From Spirochaetia bacterium (GTDB lineage Bacteria; Spirochaetota; Spirochaetia; CADAEX01): DNA of 64,000 bases. This document shows, one piece after another, positions 45,575 through 59,243 of this stretch (within the stretch, counting starts at the first letter, position 1; every line of letters begins with the position of its first letter). The position numbers and the translations under genes were made by a program. Location: NCBI GenBank assembly GCA_963662265.2, contig CAXXHA010000029.1, positions 1-64,000 of the forward strand, read 5' to 3'. The notes under the pieces are model-generated. The model had not been told where the DNA came from. It ran no database searches and was given only the letters and a program-made list of their open reading frames with translations.

Positions 45575-45607
45575 TGATTTACTAAACACTGTTTGAAAAT
45601 AAATTAT

Positions 45608-45643
45608 AAAGCCCTGCAGATAAGAAAAATGCAGGGCTTTTTT
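45608..45643. terminator. Terminator between convergent ilvD and the U32 gene
   Basis: AAAGCCCTGCA-loop-TGCAGGGCTTTTTT. Confidence 0.8.
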
Positions 45644-45706
45644 ATGAAATGCTTAAAATCCAAAATTATTAAAACAATGCTGTGAATATTTTCATATAGA
45701 TAATAA

Positions 45707-46919
45707 TCAGGTTTTCTCCCTTATTATAAATCCCTTATCAAGTTTTTTGTCTGTCACAAGATATGTTATTTTACCGTGATCTGTTTTTTCAACCAGGTTG
45801 AATTTTTCATCATAAAGTGAGAAATCTGAATCTTTGAGAAAGAGAAGATCAGGCCCTATATATTCAATCTTGCTGCTGCTTCTTATCTGGTTCTTCACAT
45901 CTATAGAATAACAGTTTTTCCCGTTTTCTGATTTTTCTTCTGACAACCCTGAAATACTGCCGAGGAATTTATACTCCCTCATGTAAGATTTAAAAGTCGG
46001 CATTTCTATTTCATCCTTGCCGTAATAAAAGCCTGTAGAAAAATTCCCTGTGGCTTACTTTGTAAATCTCATTTATATAATTATCAAGGTTGTTGATTTT
46101 ATGCCCGTTTATTGAATCAATCATTTTTTCTGTATGCTCTTGTAACAACTGCGGCATAATATATGGATTTCATCCTCCCCTCAATTTTGAGGGAATCGAC
46201 ACCTGCATTTTTAAGGTCTTCAAGATGGTCAATCATGCACAGGTCTTTGGAAGACATCACAGAAGTGAAATTTTCGCCTTCGATAACAGGGAAGTATTCA
46301 CCCTGTCTTTCAGATTCTTCCAGTACCCTGTACTGCCATCTGCAGGAGTGGGCACAGTCACCCTGATTGCCTGACCGGTCAGCAAGATATTTGCTTAAAA
46401 AACATCTTCCTGAATATGCAAGGACACATTGCACCGTGAACAAATACTTCCATTTCAAGATCAGGTAGTGAGTTTTTGATATCAGCTATTTCTGAAAGAG
46501 AAAGTTCTCTTCCAGGGATTATACGTGAAAACCCGAGATCTCTGTATAATTTTGCAGATTCTGTATTTACACAGTTGGCCTGTGTACTGAGATGAAGTTC
46601 TGTATCGGGAAAATATTTTTTTACTACAGGGAGGACTCCTATATCGCTTATTATAAAAGCATCAACCGGATATTCAGATATATAATCAATATTCTGTTCA
46701 AGATTATATAGATCAGAATTATGAAAATATATATTGAGAGCAACATAAAGCTTCTTATCCTGTTTCAATTCCCGGATCTTCAGATGTTCATCAGACTTGA
46801 AATTATCTGCTTTTGCCCTTAGTGAGAAATTTTTTGATCCCGATATATGCGGCATCTGCCCCATAGGCATATGCGTAATAAAGTTTTTCAATACTGCCTG
46901 CCGGCGATAATAATTCCAT
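45707..46919 (-). CDS. Peptidase U32 family protein (TrhP-like Fe-S RNA hydroxylase type), broken by four +1 homopolymer shifts
   Basis: Reconstructed as MELLSPAGS...YGADAAYIG, HLSTQAN, EVFVHGAMC(L)AYSGRC, CAHSCRW, LKIEGRMKS and HREFSTGF. Shifts at 46830-46835, 46422-46423, 46124-46129 and 46039-46043. Confidence 0.85.
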
Positions 46920-47238
46920 AACAGTGATAAGTTAAAATTATCCTGGATAATAGTCAATATAACATGTTTAAAAACAACTCTTTTAAATATTCTTTTGTTT
47001 ATTTCTTCTTTATTAATGAACAATATGATTATTAAGATACAAAAACATATAGTGTTTGTAGGAATATATAAAGCGAGAAAAAGGTTTATAATGTGAAAGA
47101 TGGCACAATATAAAGTTAGATGGGTGTATAAAAGCTGTTAAAAAGCCTTAATAATCACAATAAACAATTAATAATATACCGCAAGTAACATTAACAATAA
47201 TAAAAGATGTGATATATTAAGAAAATACAATATATTTA

Positions 47239-47299
47239 TTGACAATTATATAAATATGCGTATAAATTAAAATATAAGTATTAAAAATATTTAATACTT
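47239..47299 (+). promoter_or_regulatory. Promoter and palindromic operator candidate upstream of the yeeE cluster
   Basis: TTGACA (47239)-N16-TATAAA, followed by AAGTATTAAA-N4-TTTAATACTT (47276-47299). Confidence 0.45.
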
Positions 47300-47336
47300 T
47301 AATCAATATAATTAAATACAGGAGAGGTTTTTTGTT

Positions 47337-48055
47337 GTGAGTGATCTTAACGAAAAAAAAGAAGCTTCCGGTGAAAATACCGGATCTATCAGAAGAAGCA
47401 GCAGATCCAGAAGCAGAAAGCCTAAAAAAAAGCCAGATTATACCGGGGATAATTGTTCTTTTGGTGATTATTGCTATCGGTATTGTACTTGCGGCTGTAA
47501 AGCCGATGCTTGGATTTTTCTGGGTAACAGGTAATGCTTTCGGATTTATTCTTCAGAGAGCAAGATTCTGTTTTACTGCATCTTTGCGGGATCCCTATCT
47601 GACCGGCGGAACATCATTGACAAAGGCTGTTCTGACAGCTTTTGCGATAACATCAATCGGATTCATTGCAATACAGTACGGAGCAGTTTCCAAAGGCCTA
47701 CCAATGCCGGGACAGGCATATGTTGTACCTGTCAGCGCTGCAACAGCTGTCGGAGCATTCATGTTCGGTATAGGAATGGTTATAGCAGGCGGATGTGCGT
47801 CAGGAACATGCATGAGAGTGGGTGAAGGATTTCATATGCAGATGCTTTCCCTGTTCTTTTTTTGTAATAGGTTCCCTCTGGGGAGCTCATGATTTCGGAT
47901 GGTGGAAGTTGAATGTAATTCTCAAGGGAAAAGCAGTATATCTGCCTGATGTATTTGGTTGGACCGGAGCTGTAATTATTCAGCTTCTGACAATAGCATT
48001 ATTATGGATTGCCGCTGATAAATGGGGCAAGAAAAAGGCTGCAGAAGGCCACTAG
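47337..48055 (+). CDS. YeeE/YedE sulfur transporter, N-terminal-half protein; frameshift at T7 47857-47863 and possibly at A8 47424-47431
   Basis: GFILQRARFCF and FGIGMVIAGGCASG; continues FFVIGSLWGA in the shifted frame. Confidence 0.85.
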
Positions 48056-48080
48056 AAAATAATTGACAAGGAGATAAAAA

Positions 48081-48308
48081 ATGAAAGAAGTAGAACTTGA
48101 TTGTTTGGGAGAAGCTTGTCCGGTACCTCTCGTAAAGGCACAGAAAAAAATTGAAGAACTTGAAGTCGGTGATGTACTTATTGTTCAGATCGACCACAGT
48201 TGCGCTATGAAGAATCTTCCTGAATGGGCAAGAACAGAAGGTCATAACGTAGAAATTGAAGAAGTAGATGACGGAGAATGGGAAGTCATCATCGAAAAAA
48301 CTAAATAG
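48081..48308 (+). CDS. TusA/YeeD family sulfur carrier
   Basis: LDCLGEACPVP (CPxP motif); 75 aa; AGGAG SD. Confidence 0.92.
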   Translation: MKEVELDCLGEACPVPLVKAQKKIEELEVGDVLIVQIDHSCAMKNLPEWARTEGHNVEIEEVDDGEWEVIIEKTK

Positions 48309-48325
48309 ATTCCCGGAGGAAAGAA

Positions 48326-48871
48326 GTGAAACTGACTGATAAAATAAAGAATAATGATTATTATAAAATCTGGTTAAAAGACGCATGGCCTTATATTACC
48401 GGAGCAATTTTACTGTCAGTTTTCCAGATAGTAACATTAGCTGTTACTGGTAATCCGTGGGGAGTATCAGGCGTCCTTGCTAACTGGGGCGCCTGGCTAT
48501 ATCAGCTTGTCGGCGGTTCTGTCGACAAGTGGTATTACTTCTCAAGCGAAGGAGCCCAGAAAGTTCTTGCAAACAACTTTATAAAAGATCCCGGTACTAT
48601 GAGAAACCTTGGAATTATTTTCGGTGCACTTTTTGCAACGCTTATAGCTTCAGGTTTTAAATTCAAGAAAATCAAGACAAAAAAACAGGTTGTCGCAGCT
48701 ATACTCGGCGGTCTTTTAATGGGATATGGTGCAAGAATAGGTTACGGCTGCAATATAGGAGCACTTTACAGCGGTATTACTGCATTTTCACTTTCAGGAT
48801 GGGTATTTGGTATATTTATCTTTCTTGGTGCTATTGTTGGAAGTAAACTGCTTGTTAAATACTTCATGTAA
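48326..48871 (+). CDS. YeeE/YedE sulfur transporter, C-terminal-half protein
   Basis: PWGVS and GGLLMGYGARIGYGCNIGA. Confidence 0.88.
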   Translation: MKLTDKIKNNDYYKIWLKDAWPYITGAILLSVFQIVTLAVTGNPWGVSGVLANWGAWLYQLVGGSVDKWYYFSSEGAQKVLANNFIKDPGTMRNLGIIFGALFATLIASGFKFKKIKTKKQVVAAILGGLLMGYGARIGYGCNIGALYSGITAFSLSGWVFGIFIFLGAIVGSKLLVKYFM

Positions 48872-49021
48872 AGCAGTATCTGGAAAACATAAAAATATAT
48901 TTTTTAATAATATTTATTAAAAAGAAGTGGCTGAAATATCTGTCACTATAAATTGTAATTCAGGATTATATCAGATCTTAAATTAAAATACTTTCCTGAT
49001 TGACATGGAAAGGAGTGGATT

Positions 49022-50257
49022 GTGAGAGAAAAGAAAATTGAAAATTACGATGTTGTAATTATCGGGGGCGGTGCTTCCGGTCTTACAGCTGCTATATACT
49101 GCGGCAGGGCGCGGTTAAATACCCTGTTGATTGAAAAAGCTCTTATTGGGGGGCTTGCAACCTATACTAATGAAATAATGAATTTCCCGGGTTTTCCTGA
49201 CGGATCAACCGGCCTTGATCTTATGAACAAGTTTCATACGCAGGCGAAAAATTTCGGAGTAAAATTCAAACTGACTGATGTTAAATCTGTTGATTTCGGT
49301 GCTGAAACAAAAATCGTTGAAACATTCAGAAACAGCTATCATGCTAAAACAGTAATTGTTGCAACCGGAGGAAGGCCCAGAATTACAGGTGCCAAAGATG
49401 AAGAGAAATATCTTTTTGATAAAGGTATATCTTTCTGTGCAACTTGTGATGCTGCTGCCAACACAGGCAAAACTGTTATGATTATCGGAAGCGGTGACGC
49501 TGCAATCGAAGAGGGGATGTTCCTTACCAAGTTTGCTGACAAAGTAATAGTTTCTGTAATGCATGATGAAGGAAAAATGGACTGTAATGAGATAGCAAGA
49601 GACCAGGCACTTGCAAACCCGAAGATGGAATTTATCTGGAATACACTTGTAGATTCTTTTTCCGGTGAAGGTCATCTTGATACAGTTACACTCAAAAACC
49701 TGAAATCAGGCGAATTAATGCCTTTCAAGGTTGATACATGTTTCGAGTTTATCGGTTATATTCCCAACACAGAAATAGTCAAGGGAACTCTTGATATGAC
49801 TAAACCGGGCTATATTATTACCAACGATAAAATGGAGACAAATATTCCCGGAGTGTTTGCATGCGGTGATGTGAGGGACAAGGAGCTTAAACAGGTGGCA
49901 ACAGCTGTCGGCGACGGATCAATCGCAGGTGTCGGTGCTGAGAAATATATTGCTGAAACTGAAATGTTCAGAGAGCAGATCATGCAGAAGGAAAAAGTCG
50001 GTATTATTCTGATTTACTCTGCTGTTGATGCTCCAAGCAGGGAACTTATTCCTGTACTTACTGAAGTGGAAAAATCATACAACGGTAAGGTTAAACTTAA
50101 CTGTATAGATATTTACAAGGGAAGATCACTCTGTGACAGACTCGACTGTTCATGCGGAACAATGACAATCTTTATCACAAAAGATGGTGAAGTTGTTGAC
50201 AGGCTGGATGATTACTCAGAGTCAGCACTCAGAGCAAAACTTGATGCGCTTGTTTAA
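49022..50257 (+). CDS. Thioredoxin reductase-like flavoprotein with a C-terminal thioredoxin-like domain
   Basis: GGGASG, ATG, CATCD, GVFACGDV and QVATAVGDG; ~100-aa C-terminal extension. Confidence 0.85.
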   Translation: MREKKIENYDVVIIGGGASGLTAAIYCGRARLNTLLIEKALIGGLATYTNEIMNFPGFPDGSTGLDLMNKFHTQAKNFGVKFKLTDVKSVDFGAETKIVETFRNSYHAKTVIVATGGRPRITGAKDEEKYLFDKGISFCATCDAAANTGKTVMIIGSGDAAIEEGMFLTKFADKVIVSVMHDEGKMDCNEIARDQALANPKMEFIWNTLVDSFSGEGHLDTVTLKNLKSGELMPFKVDTCFEFIGYIPNTEIVKGTLDMTKPGYIITNDKMETNIPGVFACGDVRDKELKQVATAVGDGSIAGVGAEKYIAETEMFREQIMQKEKVGIILIYSAVDAPSRELIPVLTEVEKSYNGKVKLNCIDIYKGRSLCDRLDCSCGTMTIFITKDGEVVDRLDDYSESALRAKLDALV

Positions 50258-50268
50258 GGAGAGATAAA

Positions 50269-51171
50269 ATGAAAAAGATTCTTCTATCATTTTTAATTGT
50301 TCTGCCTTTTCTGTTTATTTCATGCGGACCGTCAACTCCGGGTGAAAAAGGGACAGAAATAATTGCTGCGGAAAAAGCTTTGGAAATGATTTCAGAAGGA
50401 AATATATATCTTGTGGATGCCAGAAAATCTGCTGATTATAAGAAAAATCATCTGAAAGATGCTGTTAATATTTCACGACAGGATATTGTTGACAGCAGCA
50501 AATTTCCAAACATGCTTGCATCAGGAGTTCAGATAGCTGAAGTTCTCGGAAGCAGGGGAATTTCAAATGATAAGACAATTGTTGTATATGATGATAACAA
50601 GAATATGGATTCTGCAAGATTCTGGTGGACAGTGAAAGTATACGGTAATGACAATATCAAAGTTGTCAGCGGAGGCCTTAAAGCGCTTGTTTCTGCAGGT
50701 GCTGAATTAACATCTGAAATACCTTCAGTGACTAAAGCTGACTACAAGGTATCATCGCTGCGAAGTGAAATGATAGCTGATGCCAAATACATTAAAAAAC
50801 AGGTTAATAAACCAGCTGATGATATTGTAATTATAGATACAAGAAGCCAGGAGGAATATGACGAGGGTACAATCCCTGGATCATGTCTTCTCAACTTTGT
50901 TGATAATAATTTCAAAGACGGTACTTACAAGCCTGTACAGCAGATCAGTATAAGATATCTTGAAGCTGGTATTAGTTCTGACAAGGAAGCTGTAATGTAC
51001 TGCAAGACTTCAATCAGAGGGGCCCAGACATACCTTGCGCTCTATAATGCAGGATACAGGAAACTCAAGCTTTATGACGGCGCATGGGTTGAATGGATTT
51101 CAAACCCTCTCAATCCAGTTTATAAACCGGAAAAACCGGCTTATATGATAGATTCTTCGGATAATTCATAA
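50269..51171 (+). CDS. Two-domain rhodanese/sulfurtransferase lipoprotein
   Basis: Lipobox FISC; SARFWW, IDTRS..EY..GTIPGS, YCKTSIRG and LYDGAWVEW. Confidence 0.88.
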   Translation: MKKILLSFLIVLPFLFISCGPSTPGEKGTEIIAAEKALEMISEGNIYLVDARKSADYKKNHLKDAVNISRQDIVDSSKFPNMLASGVQIAEVLGSRGISNDKTIVVYDDNKNMDSARFWWTVKVYGNDNIKVVSGGLKALVSAGAELTSEIPSVTKADYKVSSLRSEMIADAKYIKKQVNKPADDIVIIDTRSQEEYDEGTIPGSCLLNFVDNNFKDGTYKPVQQISIRYLEAGISSDKEAVMYCKTSIRGAQTYLALYNAGYRKLKLYDGAWVEWISNPLNPVYKPEKPAYMIDSSDNS

Positions 51172-51191
51172 AACTTTAAGGAGTGTTTAAG

Positions 51192-52130
51192 ATGAAAAAG
51201 AATTTTTTTAAAATTTTAACAATTATGTTAGTTCTCTTCCTGTCAACAGGATTTCTGTTTGCAGGGGGAAGTAAGGAACCGGCAACTGAAACAAAAGCTG
51301 AATCCACTCAGCTGACTGCTGTAGAAGCTGCAGTTGCAAAATACTATGATGAACTACCTGATCATATTTACAAGATCAACCAGAAGAAATTTGCTGAAAA
51401 AGTAAATGCAGGCGATGAAATGTATGTAATCGATATCAGAAGAGCTGATGACTATGCAAAAGGTCATGTAGCAGGTGCTGTCAACATGCCATGGGGAACA
51501 GCAATTTCTGACAATCTTCAGTACATCCCCCAGTCAGGCGAAGTATTTGTTTACTGCTACTCAGGACAGACTGCTGGACAGACTGTAATGCTTATGAATG
51601 CTGCAGGTATTCCGGCAAGATCAGTTAACCTCGGTTTCAAATGGGGTCTTTCAAAAGTTCCCGGAGTAGACGCTATTCTTACTACAGATGCAACAGAAAT
51701 CGACAAATCAATGACATATGATGTTAATGCAGAAATTGCGACTGCTGTAAAAGCTTATTTTGACAGATTTGCTGAAGTTAAGGGTACACCTTTTGCAAGC
51801 AACATCGTAAGTGAAGAAAATGCAAAGAAAATCCTTGATTCAGGCGATGACAGCGCTGTATTTGTATCAATCAGAAGCGCTGATGACTATGCGAAAGGGC
51901 ACATTGCTACAGCTACAAACATTCCATGGGGAAAAAGCATGCACAAGGGTTTTGATGTTCTTCCTGGTGACAAGAAAATCATTATCTACTGCTACACAGG
52001 TCAGACAGCAGGTCAGACTGTAGCAGCATTAAGACTTCTTGGATATGATGCTGTTTCTCTCAAGGGCGGCATGGGCATGGATGCAAATGCTCCTCTCGGA
52101 TGGAAAAACAAGGGATATCCGGTAGAATAG
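51192..52130 (+). CDS. Exported tandem rhodanese protein with a catalytic-position Cys in both domains
   Basis: Signal peptide ending FAGGSKE; two repeats of IR.ADDYAKGH...YCY(S/T)GQTAGQTV. Confidence 0.88.
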   Translation: MKKNFFKILTIMLVLFLSTGFLFAGGSKEPATETKAESTQLTAVEAAVAKYYDELPDHIYKINQKKFAEKVNAGDEMYVIDIRRADDYAKGHVAGAVNMPWGTAISDNLQYIPQSGEVFVYCYSGQTAGQTVMLMNAAGIPARSVNLGFKWGLSKVPGVDAILTTDATEIDKSMTYDVNAEIATAVKAYFDRFAEVKGTPFASNIVSEENAKKILDSGDDSAVFVSIRSADDYAKGHIATATNIPWGKSMHKGFDVLPGDKKIIIYCYTGQTAGQTVAALRLLGYDAVSLKGGMGMDANAPLGWKNKGYPVE

Positions 52131-52167
52131 TTTAATATTATATTCAGTTGATTCAGGATATAAACAG

Positions 52168-52203
52168 GCCGGCAGTCTTTAAAAAGGTTGCCGGCTTTTT
52201 TTT
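52168..52203 (+). terminator. Intrinsic terminator closing the sulfur cluster
   Basis: GCCGGCAGTC-loop-GGTTGCCGGC followed by T8. Confidence 0.85.
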
Positions 52204-52303
52204 AAAAAAATTGATTTTACATCATTATATTCTAATTATAGAATATAACCTCTTGTTTGATAATAATTTGTTGTATACTGAAACATAGATTTATTTTATA
52301 GAT

Positions 52304-52401
52304 TCCCCCTTTCGGGGACAGGTGCCTTGTAGGCAAACATCTAAGGCAGTTATCCCGGCTTACCGGGGAAAAACCGTAAAAGCGGTTTTTTAAAGGCATC
52401 C
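52304..52401. ncRNA. Candidate structured RNA or leader, family unassigned
   Basis: GC-rich multi-hairpin patch in AT-rich DNA, downstream of TTTACA-N17-TAGAAT (52216-52244). Confidence 0.4.
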
Positions 52402-52442: not shown

Positions 52443-54032
52443 ATGATAAAAACAGGAAAACATGCTGATAAGACAATTATCACATTTATTCTAATCTACT
52501 TTGTTTTAAACATGTTTCTGCTGGACAGTTTCCCTTTTGTGCATGCCGATGAAGCATGGCTTGCATCGCTGACAAGGGCTGTCATAAATGAAAAAAGCTT
52601 TGCTGCTGTAGAGGATTTTTTTATACTCACAAAACGTCATCCCCATGCACTGAAATCAGTTTTCCACATGATGCAGATCCCGTTTGTGGCATTTTCCTTT
52701 TCAGTTATTTCCGTAAGAATATTATCCCTGATATTTTCTTCAGCAAATCTTTTTTTCTTTTATATGATTCTGAAAAAAAATATAAGAAACCGTAAAATTA
52801 TTCTTTTCACATTGATACTGCTTGCAGCAGACATACAGTACCTTTATATTTCCCGCTTTGCCCGCCAGGAGATTATAATTCTTACATTGCTCACAACTGT
52901 CCTGTATTTATTAAACAGTCATCTGACATTGAAGAGAACTGCAACAGCAGCTTTGCTAACAGGAATTGCAGTCGGAATACATCCAAACAGTTTTATAATA
53001 TTTACTGCATCAGTTTTTTTTATTTCAGGTAAGATGTTAGTAAAGAGGAAAGATTTTAGAAAAAATATCAAAGCACTGGTTTTATATATATCTGTTACTT
53101 CTGCTTTTGCACTTGTGTTTGTTGTTTTAAGCATTGTGATGGATAGCGATTTTTTTCATAATTATCTGCAGTTCGGCTCACGTCATGGTGTTACTGATAT
53201 ATTTATTGTTAAACTTCTGAAACTTAAAAAATTCTACTTTAAGATTTTTAACAGGATATCAGGAACATACTATCTTCCCGATGTCTGTCTCCAGCTTTTT
53301 GTTTTTTTGTTTTTTTCTATTGTCACTTTTATTTCATCAATATTTTCAAAACATATGTTTAGAACGGCTTTTCCTGTCCTTATGTTTGCAGCCGGAATAA
53401 ATACCGGTTTTATACTTATAGGTAAATACAGCCCGCCATCGTTTTCATTCATTTTTCCCGCAGGCTGGCTTATTGCTGCATTAGGTGCAGACAGTTTGTC
53501 GGGTAAAGGAAAAAATATTAAAACATCAGTATTAATTTTACTGGCTGTGATACTGGGTTTCAATCTGCACAATACATATTCAGAAGTATTGAAATGGAAA
53601 AGCAGCAGCTATAAAAGTTATATGAAAGATATTTCACACATGATAACTGAAAAGGGCAGGGTATTCGGTTCTATCAATACATCATTTTACATGGACTACC
53701 GGCAGCTTGCTTCATATAACGATATGGAAATGTTTGAAAAGTCTGGAATATCTTTTGAAGAATATATTGTAAAAAACAGAATAAGGTACATTATATACAC
53801 AGATGAGCTTGATATAATCTACAGGGAGAGACCGCTCTGGAATGATCTTTACGGGAATATTTATCCACATTACCGGGAAATAAAAGAATTTATCGAAAAT
53901 AGATGCGTTAGAACAGGGGAAGTCCTTGATGAAACATACCCCGTCAGGATTGTTGATTTCATTGGAAGGAAAAAATATTCAGCAGCTGTTTTTAAGGTGG
54001 AAGGCTTTAAAAAACATCAGGGGATTCAATAA
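52443..54032 (+). CDS. GT-C fold membrane glycosyltransferase (ArnT/PMT-like)
   Basis: PFVHADEAW in the first loop, SRFARQE and HPN; many TM helices and a soluble C-terminal domain. Confidence 0.75.
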
Positions 54033-54750
54033 GATTCATCAGTTTTTCCCTTTCTATAAGGAAATCAGGTGTCAGGCTGTTGAAACATCCGGAGAAACTG
54101 TTTTTAGATACAGATATGAAATTACCCTTTTTATCCATTACTGCTATGTCTGTCGACAGTGTCATGGCTTCATCAATATCGTGGGTAACAAAAATTACTG
54201 TAATTCCGCTGTTTTTCCAGATGTTGTAAACAAGTTTATGCAGGGTTATTCTTGTCTGTATATCAAGGCTGCTGAACGGCTCATCGAGAAGAAGTATTTC
54301 CGGCCCTGAAGAGAGAGCCCTTGCAATTATCGCCCTCTTTTTCATCCCCCCTGAAAGCTGAGACGGATAATAATTCTCATAACCTTCAAGATATACTTCT
54401 TTTAAAAGAGATTCTGTTCTTACTTTTATATTGCCTGTCTTCAGTATTCTAAGTGGGAATGAAATATTTTCCTCTACTGTCAGCCACGGGAAAAGCTGGT
54501 TGTCATCCTGCAATACAATTACACGCGAAGGGTCAGGCTGTTCTGCGGTATTTTCTTTAAGCAGCACTTTTCCCCTGTCTGGAGTTATCATTGATGCTGC
54601 AGTCTTGAGCAGTGTTGATTTGCCGCAGCCAGAAGGACCCAGGATTGAGAAAAATGATCTTTCCGGTATACTGAGGTTTATTTCTTCAAGAATGTTTATC
54701 TGCCTGTTATATGAAAAGGTAATATTTTCAAGCCTTATTATATTGTTCAA
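54007..54750 (-). CDS. NitT/TauT-family ABC ATPase
   Basis: [30 protein letters not shown] and VTHDIDEA. Confidence 0.92.
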
Positions 54751-55517
54751 TTAATCATTCCCCATTTTTTTACAGTTTTATTTTCAACAGAACTGAAAAA
54801 AAGTTCTTCGATAAGAATACCTGTAATTATAATTACAATAAGACCCGCATAAATACCAGGTGTATCCATATAAACTCTTTTGCTGAAAATATACCATCCT
54901 ATTCCGCCTCTGCCTCCTGCAGCACCGAATATCATTTCCGCGCTGATAAGTGCACGCCAGGACCTTGCAAATGATATTTTAAGACCTGCAATAATATAGG
55001 GGAGAGAGTGGGGAAGTGTTATCTTTGCAAACATTTCGAAATGGCTGAGATGATAGTTTTTTCTGAATAAAACATAGTTTTCAGGAATGCTTGAATACCC
55101 TGTATAAAGGTTTGTTACCATGGGCCATAGGACAGAATGTATGACTATTATCAGAACAGATTCAATACCTGTCCCAGTCCAGAGTATAACCACAGGGAGT
55201 ATGGCTATGCCGGGGAGCGGATGTAAAAATGAAACAAGGCTTTTTAAAAGTGAATCAAAAACAGCTGAGATATGTGAACCGAGGACAAGAATAAATGCAG
55301 AAAGAGTCCCAACTGCAAGAGATATGAAAATAAGCAGAAGGGAGAAAAGAAGCTGAATAAGTATTTCACCCTCTTTGAGAGAGGAAAAAAGCGATAAGAC
55401 AACTGTCTTTACAGACGGGAAAACCAGAGGTGAAAAATTTCCTGATATTCTTATTATTTCCCAAATAATGAGAAAAAAAAGAAACCAGGCAAATTTTTTA
55501 ACAACTCCGGATTTCAT
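54747..55517 (-). CDS. NitT/TauT-family ABC permease
   Basis: PLPGIAILP and [10 protein letters not shown]. Confidence 0.9.
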
Positions 55518-56458
55518 TAATAATAAATATCCTTTTCATCTATATCATTTTCAAGGTAATTGTTTGTTTTCATGAATTTTATGAATTTGCCCATTCCCTG
55601 AATATCCTGGTTGAAATACATTCCTTCCCATGTAAGGTATTCTTTAAGTTCATCCTTATCCATATCATACTGAAGGGAGAGTATTTCTGATGCTTTATCA
55701 GGATTTTTTCTGATAAATGAAATTGTTTCTCCTATGACATTTCTCAGTACCTTGACAGCTTCGGGATGTTTTTCCGCAAAGCTGTTTTTTACAGTACCCC
55801 CGATAAATGTAAACTCGCCGCCCATTGCTTCATTGCCTGAAAGTATGAGTTTAAAACCCGGCTGTTTCAGCTCTTTCATTATAAAGGGGGGGGATGTGAA
55901 ATGCGCTGCAATATCATTTTTACTGAAAAGTGCATTCATCCCGTCAGGATGCGACATTGTCACTATGCGGTTGTCAAAAAAGGAAGGTGATCCTTTTTCC
56001 TTCTCTGATGCCATTGTAAGGAGAATATGCTGTATGCTGCCAGGCTGCGGAAGAGCTATCCTGTCCTCTTCTGTAAAGTCTGAAAGTGTGTTTATGTTCT
56101 CCTTCCAGCTGACAAGACCTATAGGCGCCCTGCAGAGCCCTGTAAACATTTTCCATTCCATTCCCCTGTCATAACCGATCAGGAAAGGGGGAAGTCCCAT
56201 GAAGCCTATATCAAGGCTGTCTGAAAGCATTGCCTCCCTGATAGCTGCAGTATTTGCAAGTTTTTTCCATTCAACAGTCCACCCCTGAAGTTTCTCCTCA
56301 AGTCTCTTCTCCGACCTGATTATCTGAAGCGGTGCATATGCAAGGCCGTACTGCTCTGCTATTATTATTTTTTTCCCCTCTTTTCGTCCAACACATGAAA
56401 AAAGGATTAAAGAGGCTGTTATAATTAAAATAAGCTTGAATATTTTGTGAATCAACAA
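55517..56458 (-). CDS. NitT/TauT-family ABC substrate-binding lipoprotein
   Basis: Lipobox LFSC; QYGLAYAP and IALPQPGSIQH. Confidence 0.85.
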   Translation of the reverse strand: MLIHKIFKLILIITASLILFSCVGRKEGKKIIIAEQYGLAYAPLQIIRSEKRLEEKLQGWTVEWKKLANTAAIREAMLSDSLDIGFMGLPPFLIGYDRGMEWKMFTGLCRAPIGLVSWKENINTLSDFTEEDRIALPQPGSIQHILLTMASEKEKGSPSFFDNRIVTMSHPDGMNALFSKNDIAAHFTSPPFIMKELKQPGFKLILSGNEAMGGEFTFIGGTVKNSFAEKHPEAVKVLRNVIGETISFIRKNPDKASEILSLQYDMDKDELKEYLTWEGMYFNQDIQGMGKFIKFMKTNNYLENDIDEKDIYY

Positions 56459-57738
56459 AATCTCCTTATTTCTTTGTATAATGCCTGGTCTGTTTTATCC
56501 ATAAGCATATTGAATCCCTGTTTATTTTCAACAGAGGATAAATTAAACAGTTTTTCTATATCATAATTCAGTTTACTGAAATTATCAGATAATAATACTG
56601 CATATCCTGCTCTTTGTGTTGAATTATTTATATTATTGATTTCAGTACCGGGACTGTGAAGGTAGGAGAAACTTTGCAGTGACTCTATGGAACTGGAATC
56701 AGGTTTTACCTGCCTGTGAATTACTCCCCTGCTGCAGAAAAAGAGGGGTACTGAAACATATTTACCGTAACTGTTTATCTTATACGGCTTGAGATTTTTA
56801 AAATCATCTTCAGTGATTTTAACTCCGCTAGATCCCTTTATAAGAAGTTTTCTTATGTCTATTCCTGTGAGAAGCGGTATAAACTCATCTTCATATGCCC
56901 CCCCCAGCCTGCATGCAATTTCATTGATAATTAAGCCTCTGTCTCCAATGAGATACTGAAAATAAATCGGCCCGTTTTTTATGCCGAAATTATCAGTCAC
57001 TGAAACAGTAGTTTCAATGATACTGTCTCTGTATGCCGATGAATATGGAGAAGGAAAGGTATGTGCCGAGCACACTCCTATTGTAGGATAATTATTGAAA
57101 GTAACCCTGTCAGTAACAGAAAAGATATAGACACTTCCGTTGCAGACCCAGCCTGATACTGTTATCTCATCTGAATCATAGTATTCCTCGATAAGTATCA
57201 TCTCTTCTCTTGAAAAGGAAACTGTAGTATCAAACAGCTGTCTTATTTCAGTAACTGTATCAACCTTGAAAACACCTCTCTGCCCCTGGCTGTCAAAAGG
57301 TTTGATTACGAAAGGGGGCTTGAGATCTGAAAGCTCATTATCTGAAAACCCTTTTTGTATCATTGCAAAAGGGGATGTCTTCATTCCGTGTTTTCTGAAA
57401 AGTGATTTCATTATCCGTTTATTGGTCACTGATAAAGCTGTTTTCCTGCTTAGAAACCGGGGAAGATTCATTTCCTCTGCAACTGAAGCGGCTGTCAATA
57501 CCGGCTGGTCTGTTCCTGCAGTAAGGACCGCATCAATACCAAGTTTAACTGCTGCTTGAGTTACTGCATCAATATCAAAAGTGCTTGCCTTTGCAAAATT
57601 GGTAGCAAAAACTCTTCCGGGGGCATTTTCATTGATATCAGCAAGAATTGTATTATAGCCCTGGCTGACACATTCTTTTATCAGGTTTATCTGGCTGCTT
57701 CCGCCGCCCAGTACCATGATTTTTTTTTCTTTATTCAT
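56452..57738 (-). CDS. ATP-grasp ligase
   Basis: LGGGSSQ, IKPFDSQGQRG, IEEY and NEIACRLGG. Confidence 0.85.
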   Translation of the reverse strand: MNKEKKIMVLGGGSSQINLIKECVSQGYNTILADINENAPGRVFATNFAKASTFDIDAVTQAAVKLGIDAVLTAGTDQPVLTAASVAEEMNLPRFLSRKTALSVTNKRIMKSLFRKHGMKTSPFAMIQKGFSDNELSDLKPPFVIKPFDSQGQRGVFKVDTVTEIRQLFDTTVSFSREEMILIEEYYDSDEITVSGWVCNGSVYIFSVTDRVTFNNYPTIGVCSAHTFPSPYSSAYRDSIIETTVSVTDNFGIKNGPIYFQYLIGDRGLIINEIACRLGGAYEDEFIPLLTGIDIRKLLIKGSSGVKITEDDFKNLKPYKINSYGKYVSVPLFFCSRGVIHRQVKPDSSSIESLQSFSYLHSPGTEINNINNSTQRAGYAVLLSDNFSKLNYDIEKLFNLSSVENKQGFNMLMDKTDQALYKEIRRFC

Positions 57739-58495
57739 GCAAAAACCTGCCGCAATTTTTATCTATTGATTTCTCTATAATATCACCTGCGGATTTCTTA
57801 TCAGAAAATAACAGTTCTGAAAGCCTGTATATAAAACGGGGGAAACCGTAATAGAAAACAAGTCTTGAAAATAGAAAAATAAGTTTACCTATGCTGTACC
57901 TGCTTTCAGAAACTGTAACAGTATCTGTATTTATATAAGAAGCCTCAGGTTTGAAGCTGAGAGCAATAGCTGAAATATAAATGAATTTCTTATCTGTTTT
58001 GAGGATTTTATCGACAAGTGATTTTTTCATTATTCTGAAGCTTGTTATTTTAAGTTTTAATGGTTTTCGGAATGCGGTATAGAAAAAAATGTCATGCGCA
58101 AAAGATCCTGCTTTTCTGAAAAATGAATATTTTTTTCTATTCACTGCATATACAATGTCATAGTTTTTCCTGATTTCAGCAATAAGAACAGGAATGATTT
58201 CAGGGTCATGCTGCATATCATCATCCATTGTAATAACATAATCCCCTCTGCTGTACATGAGGCCTGCAAAAACCGCATTCTGCTGACCCATGTTTTCTGA
58301 AAGGCTTATACCCTTTATCCTTGAATCTGATTCTGAAAGATTTTCAATTTCGTTCCATGTAGAATCACTGCTCCCGTCATTTACAAATATTATCTCAAAA
58401 TCAATCAATGAGCAGATTTTTATAATTTCAGAAGCAATTAACTTGAGGCGTCCCTTGCTGTTGAAACAGGGGATGACAATGCTTACAGATTCCAT
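57731..58495 (-). CDS. GT2 polyprenyl-phosphate glycosyltransferase (ArnC/GtrB-like)
   Basis: IPCFN, VNDGSSD, NMGQQNA..AGL, TMDDDMQHDPE and SFR. Confidence 0.85.
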   Translation of the reverse strand: MESVSIVIPCFNSKGRLKLIASEIIKICSLIDFEIIFVNDGSSDSTWNEIENLSESDSRIKGISLSENMGQQNAVFAGLMYSRGDYVITMDDDMQHDPEIIPVLIAEIRKNYDIVYAVNRKKYSFFRKAGSFAHDIFFYTAFRKPLKLKITSFRIMKKSLVDKILKTDKKFIYISAIALSFKPEASYINTDTVTVSESRYSIGKLIFLFSRLVFYYGFPRFIYRLSELLFSDKKSAGDIIEKSIDKNCGRFLHE

Positions 58496-58902
58496 ATCAA
58501 AATTCCTGAAGCAATTAATAAAACAGCTGCCGCTTTTTTTAAAGTAATTCTTTCCCTGAAAATAACAATACCAAGTCCCGGTATGATAATCTGGTTAAGA
58601 GCTGTAAAGCTGTAGGCTGTATTCAGTTCAAGCGACTTGAGCGCGTAAAAATAAAAAAACGGGGCACATAGAACGGCAGCAAGTCCCGAGATTAAACCAG
58701 GACGTAAAAACTGCCTGAAAAGAAGCGGGATATTCCTTGTAAGCACAATACTGCTGCTTGAATGCTTTATTACGAGATGGCCGTATGATGTCAGAATGCA
58801 CATTATAATAATTGATATAATTTCTCTTTTCAAATGATGCCCCAGAAATAAATAAGTATAATGTTTTTCAATTCCCACCCCGCTTTGTTTTGAGTGAATC
58901 AT
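58483..58902 (-). CDS. Small EamA/SMR-like protein (ArnE/ArnF-like flippase subunit); true start probably ~58833
   Basis: ALKSLELNTAYSF and FRERIT; about 4 TM helices. Confidence 0.7.
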   Translation of the reverse strand: MIHSKQSGVGIEKHYTYLFLGHHLKREIISIIIMCILTSYGHLVIKHSSSSIVLTRNIPLLFRQFLRPGLISGLAAVLCAPFFYFYALKSLELNTAYSFTALNQIIIPGLGIVIFRERITLKKAAAVLLIASGILIWNL

Positions 58903-59236
58903 TCATAAGAAGCAATATTCCTGAAGTTATGAGAACTGCTCCTGCTGAATTGAAAAATGTAATCTGTTCATTAAAAAGAACTGCTGAAAGAATAAGTATA
59001 ATTACATAATTTATGCTCATAAATGGATATGCTTCTGAGAGCTCTACATACCTGATTATAAATACCCAGATAAAACCTCTCAGTATAAGAAACATATAAC
59101 TCAGAATAAGAAAGATATTTAATGAGAAGCTCTCCTGTGAGGCAAGTATTGAAGATCCTGTTTTTGCAGAAATCTGTCCTGCAACCATAAGCAGAACAGG
59201 GATAAATAACAGGGTTATTTTGTTAATATTTTTCAT
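58868..59236 (-). CDS. Small EamA/SMR-like protein (ArnE/ArnF-like flippase subunit)
   Basis: GQISAK, ELSEAYPFMSINYV and FNEQIT...GAVLI..GI. Confidence 0.78.
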   Translation of the reverse strand: MKNINKITLLFIPVLLMVAGQISAKTGSSILASQESFSLNIFLILSYMFLILRGFIWVFIIRYVELSEAYPFMSINYVIILILSAVLFNEQITFFNSAGAVLITSGILLLMNDSLKTKRGGN

Positions 59237-59243
59237 CACATTG

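Follow-up and report, generated by a model that had tools for sequence, protein, structure and literature searches.

How does sulfur that has entered a cell through a YeeE-type channel and been loaded on its YeeD carrier obtain the electrons needed for its release as sulfide? YeeD is reported to break thiosulfate down to sulfide if reductant is present, and the cellular electron route to YeeD and the sulfur acceptor proteins are described as still to be identified (PMC11073785; this and the other papers are cited here for their accessible parts). The question is raised by six genes (g1 to g6) of a Spirochaetia bacterium, lying in the window analysed here, that is, the whole stretch of 64,000 nucleotides (nt) at positions 1 to 64,000 of the forward strand of contig CAXXHA010000029.1 (assembly GCA_963662265.2). 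They encode two halves of a YeeE/YedE-family channel, a TusA-family carrier, a thioredoxin reductase (TrxR)-like flavoprotein and two exported rhodaneses. An original prediction, made from the sequence alone, had read all six as a trans-envelope relay, in which periplasmic rhodaneses capture sulfane sulfur, YeeE passes it to TusA and a fusion of TrxB and thioredoxin (Trx) releases sulfide. Our answer is narrower. Judged by sequence and gene neighbourhood, the firm unit is one of four genes, namely the YeeE N-half, a two-cysteine YeeD-type TusA, the YeeE C-half and the TrxR-like flavoprotein. We put at about one half the probability that the operon imports thiosulfate-like or other sulfane sulfur and that a step driven by NADH frees sulfide from TusA. 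The original prediction is thus partly supported: it was right in its unit of import and reduction, and too broad in taking six genes as a fixed system and in its thioredoxin relay.

The conserved core and its components

The observations behind this answer concern gene content, sequence motifs, export signals and conserved adjacency. All six open reading frames (ORFs) are present in one orientation on the plus strand from 47337 to 52130, as had been predicted, and their Pfam matches agree with the families assigned to them. Lengths are given in amino acids (aa).

47337..48055, plus strand: g1, N-half of a YeeE/YedE-family channel; Pfam PF04143, 81.3 bits; about 238 aa after two over-called bases are discounted
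48081..48308, plus strand: g2, TusA-family carrier of the YeeD/TsuB type; Pfam TusA, 84.8 bits; 75 aa
48326..48871, plus strand: g3, C-half of a YeeE/YedE-family channel; Pfam PF04143, 117.5 bits; 181 aa
49022..50257, plus strand: g4, flavoprotein like low-molecular-mass TrxR with a C-terminal thioredoxin-fold domain; Pyr_redox_2, 149.7 bits
50269..51171, plus strand: g5, two-domain TST-type rhodanese lipoprotein; Pfam rhodanese (PF00581) in two stretches
51183..52130, plus strand: g6, exported tandem rhodanese; Pfam rhodanese in two stretches

A scan for relatives of g4, with one genome per species, gave 66 loci, and the 38 loci counted below are those whose g4 relative has at least 56% identity. 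At every one of the 38, g3 lies directly upstream of g4; g1 and TusA are present at 35, the other three being interrupted by contig ends. These loci come from Spirochaetota, Clostridia, Anaerolineae (Chloroflexota) and two metagenome-assembled genomes (MAGs) labelled Bacteroides, the clostridial carriers being Fusibacter, Oceanirhabdus, Lachnotalea, Vallitalea and many MAGs. The gap between g3 and g4 shrinks to 20-35 nt in several relatives, the TusA gene is duplicated at several loci, and clostridial loci carry a divergent LysR gene (23 of the 38) and also an extra TusA gene. As an independent test, two taxon samples were searched with g4 alone. A close relative was found in 5 of 401 Spirochaetota genomes, the window's own included, and in 16 of 399 genomes of the class of the Fusibacter genome (a Clostridia-class sample), and a YeeE-type gene adjoins g4 at 17/17 newly retrieved loci. 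Beside distant fused YeeE/YedE genes with 27-39% identity to g3, no such reductase was found nearby in any of the 10 places looked at (L091-L100), so the association is specific to one clade. The six-gene neighbourhood that had been proposed therefore holds for the channel halves, TusA and the reductase (38/38 and 17/17), but not for the rhodaneses, which accompany them at 18/38.

Regarding the channel, both halves pass the cut-off of 27 bits of the Sulf_transp family PF04143. In HMMER alignments to the solved YeeE of Spirochaeta thermophila (StYeeE, 6LEO), g1 keeps the equivalents of Cys22 and Cys91, and g3, aligned to residues 243-320, that of Cys293. All three cysteines are functional in StYeeE (PMC11582611), and thiosulfate ions pass through the solved channel (PMC11582611, PMC11073785). 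The more specific models are not reached: g1 and g3 score 71.8 and 55.6 bits against the TsuA model NF052577 (cut-off 400), 65.4 and 29.1 bits against the TsuA model NF041049 (cut-off 645), and 91.7 and 101.4 bits against the YedE/FdhT model NF033796 (cut-off 350). By these scores g1 and g3 are a separate subfamily of YeeE/YedE proteins. Nor is the channel a single polypeptide of 330-350 aa as in TsuA, since it is split into two genes. The carrier g2 has Cys13, in a CPVP motif, and Cys41 invariant in 16/16 aligned sequences, and its closest solved relatives are TM0983 and StYeeD. It scores 51.9 bits with the TsuB/YeeD model NF041048 (cut-off 147.5) and 43.2 bits with the YedF model TIGR03527 (cut-off 110). 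Its two cysteines correspond to the pattern of E. coli YeeD (C13 and C39), where both are required for growth on thiosulfate (PMC11073785).

Known relatives can be set beside this arrangement. The YeeE(TsuA)/YeeD(TsuB) systems of E. coli and S. thermophila (6LEO, 8J4C, 8K1R) belong to the same Pfam family, and the three channel cysteines and the adjacent CPxP carrier with the two-cysteine pattern of E. coli YeeD are kept here. Unlike StYeeE, however, the present channel is divided into 238 and 181 aa with the carrier gene in between, about 90 aa longer in total, and it is linked to a reductase and exported rhodaneses, neither of which is described for TsuAB in the accessible parts of the literature. 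PmpAB/YedE1E2 likewise has its channel as two half-genes that are needed together, with essential cysteines and directional import (PMC10812762, PMC11582611). Those halves, mostly from Proteobacteria, are given there as four-helix proteins of about 130 aa, each with a single cysteine, whereas here the halves have 238 and 181 aa, three cysteines in total, a carrier between them and a reductase after them.

The reductase g4 is the most distinctive member. Its predicted fold is that of a low-molecular-mass TrxR followed by a beta-alpha-beta-alpha-beta-beta-alpha domain (mean predicted local distance difference test score, pLDDT, 83.0; predicted template modelling score, pTM, 0.70), and the best Foldseek match of the model is the TrxR of D. 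radiodurans (2q7v, E 6.4e-40). The CATC redox centre at residues 139-142 is invariant in 32/32 sequences. Among 34 aligned sequences the conserved cysteines are Cys139 and Cys142 of this centre, Cys188 (94%) and Cys240 (100%), and no others. The C-terminal domain matches Thioredoxin (PF00085) at residues 312-407 with 26.1 bits against a cut-off of 23.5. It has four cysteines in the window, each found in just 2-7 of the 34 sequences, and no CxxC. To judge from this alignment, the fused thioredoxin fold is redox-dead and its cysteine-rich look a quirk of the lineage. The extra Cys-rich domain that had been described is therefore there as far as the four residues go, but none of them is conserved; a conserved metal or redox site in it is ruled out, and a Trx system is not the apt picture for g4. 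Its two-domain flavoprotein fold, its CATC centre and its C-terminal fusion recall TrxB and NTRC, from which it differs by the loss of the NADPH motif, by the missing CxxC of the fused domain and by the lack of a thioredoxin gene in its vicinity. In TrxRs the arginines of the HRRxxxR motif bind the 2'-phosphate of NADPH. In g4 this motif is replaced, HDEGKMDC aligning with HRRDTLRA of 2q7v, and the HDEGKMD pocket is close to invariant across the g4 clade; the loss of the motif points to a preference for NADH over NADPH. The enzyme falls under the cut-off of the TrxB equivalog TIGR01292 (310.4 against 343.45 bits) and far under that of the CoA-disulfide reductase (CoADR) model TIGR03385 (51.6 against 578.8 bits), and does not belong to the CoADR family, although its mode of action may resemble that of the CoADR-type enzyme NSR. 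A canonical TrxB with 381 bits, above the cut-off, is encoded on another contig of the genome. The operon's own enzyme is thus a dedicated paralogue, as had been supposed.

What such an enzyme reduces is suggested by its sister clade. Five proteins of about 41% identity with no YeeE nearby (L057-L060 and L069) all share the pocket and the Cys-less Trx domain, and at both sister loci examined (L060 and L069) a thioredoxin gene and glycine-reductase genes lie directly downstream of the reductase. This suggests that the sister clade is an NADH-type TrxR for Stickland-type reduction. Since thioredoxin and glycine-reductase genes follow it, the gene context also indicates that enzymes of this type act on a small redox protein within a reductive (sink) pathway of fermenters. 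The conserved neighbourhood of the YeeE-linked clade, as seen at the 38 loci, contains no thioredoxin gene, by contrast, and the two-cysteine TusA takes its place beside g4. The two sister sites, L060:9977-14882 and L069:9908-14465, come from Syntrophomonadaceae and another Bacillota MAG and contain glycine/sarcosine/betaine reductase genes.

The exported proteins g5 and g6 complete the set in spirochaetes. g5 has a lipobox (FISC) and a TST-type layout, with Cys245 in its active-site loop CKTSIRG. For g6, a signal peptide is recognised, and both domains contain a catalytic cysteine (CYSGQTAG at 125 and CYTGQTAG at 270). Sequence rules find an N-terminal hydrophobic segment in 22 of 23 rhodaneses from the window and its relatives and a lipobox-like motif in 19 of 23, by which an extracytoplasmic location, as predicted, is well supported. 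The trans-envelope label is overstated, as in monoderm Clostridia the system would span the cytoplasmic membrane alone. Rhodaneses outside the cytoplasm are known elsewhere, Wolinella Sud being an exported one. E. coli PspE resembles g5 and g6 in having rhodanese domains outside the cytoplasmic membrane, and it converts thiosulfate to sulfane sulfur that ends inside the cell (PMC10215317). In distinction from PspE, g5 is a two-domain TST-type lipoprotein, at 53.4 bits under the cut-off of 102 of the PspE model, and g6 a tandem of two catalytic domains. The name RdlA was tried for g5 and rejected: it stands on none of the 120 homologues listed, and the link comes from the genome paper PMC3035371. 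Spirochaetes have the rhodanese genes directly downstream of g4, as do 5 of the 17 independent loci. Many Clostridia have them 7-10 kb upstream and on the opposite strand, and at both loci that were extended they were found just past the original flank.

Two further observations concern the core and the reductases of this genome. A variant of the core has the order TusA, a YeeE/YedE-type channel with its C-half-like part first (as in YedE/FdhT) and reductase, and occurs at L055, L056, L083, L084, L089, L090, L111-L113, L116 and L117. At L055, L056, L083 and L084 a single fused protein of about 420 aa makes up the channel and a Crp/Fnr-like regulator gene stands in front, these four being the loci with neighbours read; elsewhere it is the order of matches that was seen. 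Such fused channels were noted first at four loci of uncultured Spirochaetales and then at further ones. Elsewhere in the genome (G000:C32:13559-14902), an ORF of 679 aa joins a CoADR/NADH-oxidase-like flavoprotein to two rhodanese domains. NADH-dependent persulfide/polysulfide reductases are built in this way, and the ORF is a second candidate sulfur reductase.

A reading as import and reduction, and its rivals

For the substrate, the direction of flow, the use of NADH and the role of TusA as the substrate of g4, we infer the following scheme. In the cytoplasmic membrane, the halves of YeeE would assemble into a single channel lined by cysteines. At the inner face of this channel the YeeD-type TusA would dock, so that thiosulfate or sulfane sulfur could be loaded on Cys13. 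Cys41 may help to resolve the adduct, leaving a disulfide or persulfide on TusA, and g4 would then restore TusA by its CATC centre with electrons from NADH, not NADPH, and set sulfide free. The channel is probably fed by the exported rhodaneses, with sulfane sulfur that they mobilise from thiosulfate, polysulfide or elemental sulfur (S0). The sulfide could supply cysteine synthase and, at higher flux, the re-oxidation of NADH would make the process a fermentative electron sink. A stronger version takes the four-gene core as an NADH-driven reductase specific for the persulfide or disulfide of TusA, and the core with its surface rhodaneses as the long-sought non-respiratory thiosulfate/S0 reductase of fermentative sulfidogens, Fusibacter and halophilic spirochaetes among them; this we offer tentatively, considering it more apt to fail than to hold.

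The use of sulfide for biosynthesis fits the genome, in which (at 90.6% completeness) no match to a NIR_SIR sulfite reductase was found, so that reduced sulfur must be obtained and sulfide from the operon could feed cysteine synthesis; CysK is present, split by an apparent frameshift. As to the sink, Fusibacter paucivorans carries the whole cluster (L046), and Fusibacter species use the reduction of thiosulfate and S0 as an electron sink (PMC9751042). A homologue of g4 with 74% identity is named from Sediminispirochaeta smaragdinae (a protein match alone), whose genome paper reports reduction of thiosulfate and S0 and rhodanese activity (PMC3035371). A parallel is offered by Thermotoga maritima. 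Its yeeE, part of a yeeE-dsrE-tusA cluster, goes up 42.6-fold in the presence of thiosulfate, and thiosulfate and polysulfide are reduced by NSR, an NAD(P)H flavoprotein of the cytoplasm (PMC9431562). The likeness lies in a fermenter with YeeE import, a soluble nicotinamide-dependent flavoprotein and sulfide as electron sink; the difference is that NSR is of the CoADR family and is not placed in the yeeE unit in the accessible part of that paper, whereas here the enzyme is of the TrxR family and adjoins the channel.

Several points weigh against this scheme. A g5-type gene lies within 10 kb of g4 at 18/38 loci (absent at 20/38) and a g6-type gene at 14/38. Among the 17 independent loci, for which flanks of up to about 8 kb were retrieved, rhodaneses were seen at 5. 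Since rhodaneses are so often absent nearby, the core works without linked ones. The NADH preference of g4 is drawn from a single kind of evidence, the loss of the motif. The predicted complex of g4 with TusA lends weak support: its ipSAE values of 0.59, 0.58 and 0.59, with 0.00 for the best of three controls, reach a pass mark that, over all scores, 58 of 80 solved complexes attain, as do 2 of 110 mismatched pairs, and passes at 0.60 or under comprise 7 of those 80 complexes and both mismatches. The contacts agree between runs by at least 96%, and the partner has a pLDDT of at least 86. No fusion of TusA with the reductase or the channel turned up, the six longer proteins found having TusA domains only, an outcome that counts as weak evidence in either direction. 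At least one genus bearing the cluster, Vallitalea, is not known to use thiosulfate or S0 as electron acceptor. Moreover, the channel halves and TusA score nearer to the YedE/FdhT and YedF models, which are linked to selenium, than to those of TsuA/TsuB, all far under the cut-offs, and the LysR of the relatives matches a selenium-metabolism LysR model best (172 bits against a cut-off of 250).

An unlikely alternative, and the one that survives best, is that the reductase bypasses TusA, acting directly on polysulfide or persulfide in the manner of NSR or Npsr, or on an unlinked thioredoxin, with TusA serving the channel. Direct reduction of polysulfide and thiosulfate by flavoproteins of the cytoplasm has precedents (PMC9431562), and the weak complex prediction, the separate thioredoxin employed by the sister clade and the missing TusA fusion would suit this. 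The gene context speaks otherwise: thioredoxin, directly downstream in the sister clade, is not among the conserved neighbours at the 38 loci, and that place is taken by TusA, in which two cysteines are invariant and whose gene is even present twice at several loci. In addition, the redox cysteines of low-molecular-mass TrxRs normally serve protein substrates.

More doubtful still is a role in selenium or tellurium handling, with a YedE/FdhT-type importer, a YedF-like carrier and a reductase acting for SelD or for detoxification. This improbable case draws on the models just named, YedE/FdhT giving the best NCBIfam matches of g1 and g3 and TusA matching YedF models, on the YedE/FdhT domain order of the fused relatives, and on the work of Lin et al., which as summarised in PMC9312934 ties YedE, YedF and a LysR to selenium. 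All these matches, however, are far under their cut-offs of 350, 110 and 250 bits. The distribution of SelD, with which the original prediction had proposed to correlate the six-gene neighbourhood, also disfavours it: at 90.6% completeness this genome has no SelD over the cut-off, and SelD is found in 5/10 other carriers and missing in the other five, three of which are single complete chromosomes, which makes a role specific to selenium unlikely. Sulfur also accords better with the export of TST-type rhodaneses and with sulfur reduction as practised by some carriers.

Least probable of all is sensing, export or detoxification of reactive sulfur species (of the SoxT-signalling or cst type) in place of net uptake and reduction, for although the YeeE-like SoxT1B serves signal transduction in Hyphomicrobium (PMC11582611) and regulators flank the core in relatives (LysR at 23/38 loci, a Crp-like gene in the fused type), the spirochaete arrangement, window included, is without these regulators, a dedicated reductase 55-94% identical at 38 loci in three phyla suggests metabolic flux, and YedE1E2 speeds the import of zero-valent sulfur, not its export (PMC10812762).

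Operon boundaries, assembly errors and neighbouring genes

The boundaries of the operon are marked by two features:

47024..47336, plus strand: AT-rich upstream region with sigma-70-like sites and the ribosome-binding site AGGAGAGG; putative promoter
52166..52205, plus strand: hairpin like an intrinsic terminator (14 pairs, 7 of them G-C) with a T-run, closing the six genes

Upstream, the GC content is 0.30 across 46500-47499, two promoter-like sigma-70 matches cover 47191-47218 and 47239-47268, and g1 is preceded by a strong ribosome-binding site. An Rfam scan of the region upstream of the operon matched no family; a riboswitch or other leader was considered there and rejected, as permissive settings gave just sub-threshold chance matches. 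The successive genes from g1 to g6 are separated by 25, 17, 150, 11 and 11 nt, and a scan of the 150-nt gap between g3 and g4 found no terminator-like site. The hairpin stem (52166-52197, 14 pairs, then the T-run) begins 35 nt past g6, in agreement with the single closing terminator that had been proposed. Co-transcription of the six genes is plausible on this layout.

As assembled, the frame of g1 shifts twice, in an A-run near 47424 and in a T-run near 47857. Over 45600-48100 the assembly was compared with Logan contigs from four public runs (X1-X4) of two studies, X1-X3 being one sample, possibly the one assembled here, and X4 the sole run of the other study. Every covering contig has one base fewer at 46039, 46124, 46422, 46830, 46970, 47041, 47328, 47424 and 47857; the sites 46970, 47041 and 47424 are covered by X1-X3 alone, X4 having no cover there. 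The relatives of g1 are uninterrupted, and the N-terminus of the closest one (L021) fits the frame from GTG 47337, the start already assigned. Because the relatives are continuous and the public contigs one base short, the breaks are homopolymer over-calls of the assembly, and by this comparison g1 is intact in the organism with about 238 aa; a true frameshift, phase variation or a pseudogene is ruled out by the contigs without the extra base. The true start of g6 is probably ATG 51192, as in L021. Nine single-base homopolymer over-calls in 2.4 kb of this assembly also cut the upstream U32-peptidase/TrhP-like gene (45707-47023, minus strand) falsely into three ORFs. The cysK split on another contig (G000:C30:67732-68627) resembles such splits, a likeness seen in the assembly alone. 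Given that these over-calls are systematic, gene calls across the genome warrant caution.

Downstream lies a module that accompanies the rhodaneses:

52443..59239, both strands: the whole module, defined by synteny in relatives
52443-54032, plus strand: GT-C/PMT_2-like membrane protein, recognised by language-model features, with no Pfam match
54007-56458, minus strand: SsuABC-like ABC importer
56452-57738, minus strand: ATP-grasp ligase
57731-58495, minus strand: ArnC-like GT2
58483-59239, minus strand: ArnE/F-like pair (flippase genes)

The module ends in such flippase genes or, in Clostridia, in a WecE-type aminotransferase, and the gene order in spirochaetes is a rotation of the clostridial one. 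The rhodaneses co-vary with it, not with the four-gene core, and are nearly always side by side with it; L025 is an exception, having both rhodaneses and no module genes within 10 kb. A possible role of the module is glycosylation at the cell surface, with the rhodanese lipoproteins among the conceivable targets. Reportedly, SaoA/SaoP have been named in a preprint as a selenoprotein-associated system; the matches of the neighbouring ABC transporter to the SaoA/SaoP models fall under the cut-off. Between the terminator and the GT-C gene, 52280-52400 holds several short GC-rich inverted repeats, one with a T-run near 52370-52392, which could be a leader or attenuator; an Rfam scan of them matched no family.

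Significance for sulfide formation in fermenters

The complete system had been thought to be without earlier description, and in the accessible parts of the papers listed by literature searches no account was found that unites YeeE halves, TusA, a TrxR-like enzyme and rhodaneses in a single system, a negative that excludes the supplementary alignments and neighbourhoods of PMC11582611 and PMC11073785, which may bear on novelty. The system would be one of YeeE/YeeD uptake joined to cytoplasmic nicotinamide-dependent sulfur reduction, with an undescribed partner of the TrxR family. Its occurrence is patchy (5/401 and 16/399 genomes) and its conservation high, which suggests a transferable trait.

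Many fermentative anaerobes are able to turn thiosulfate or S0 into sulfide but are not known to have a respiratory reductase for it, a matter of relevance to oil-field souring, to corrosion and to the sulfur cycle of sediments and guts. With a soluble NADH-linked route, this sulfide-forming trait would gain a genetic marker. The stronger version given above, if true, would explain sulfide production in organisms without Phs, Psr, Asr or Dsr. Fixed beside channel and carrier in three phyla, the reductase is a concrete candidate for the electron source of YeeD.

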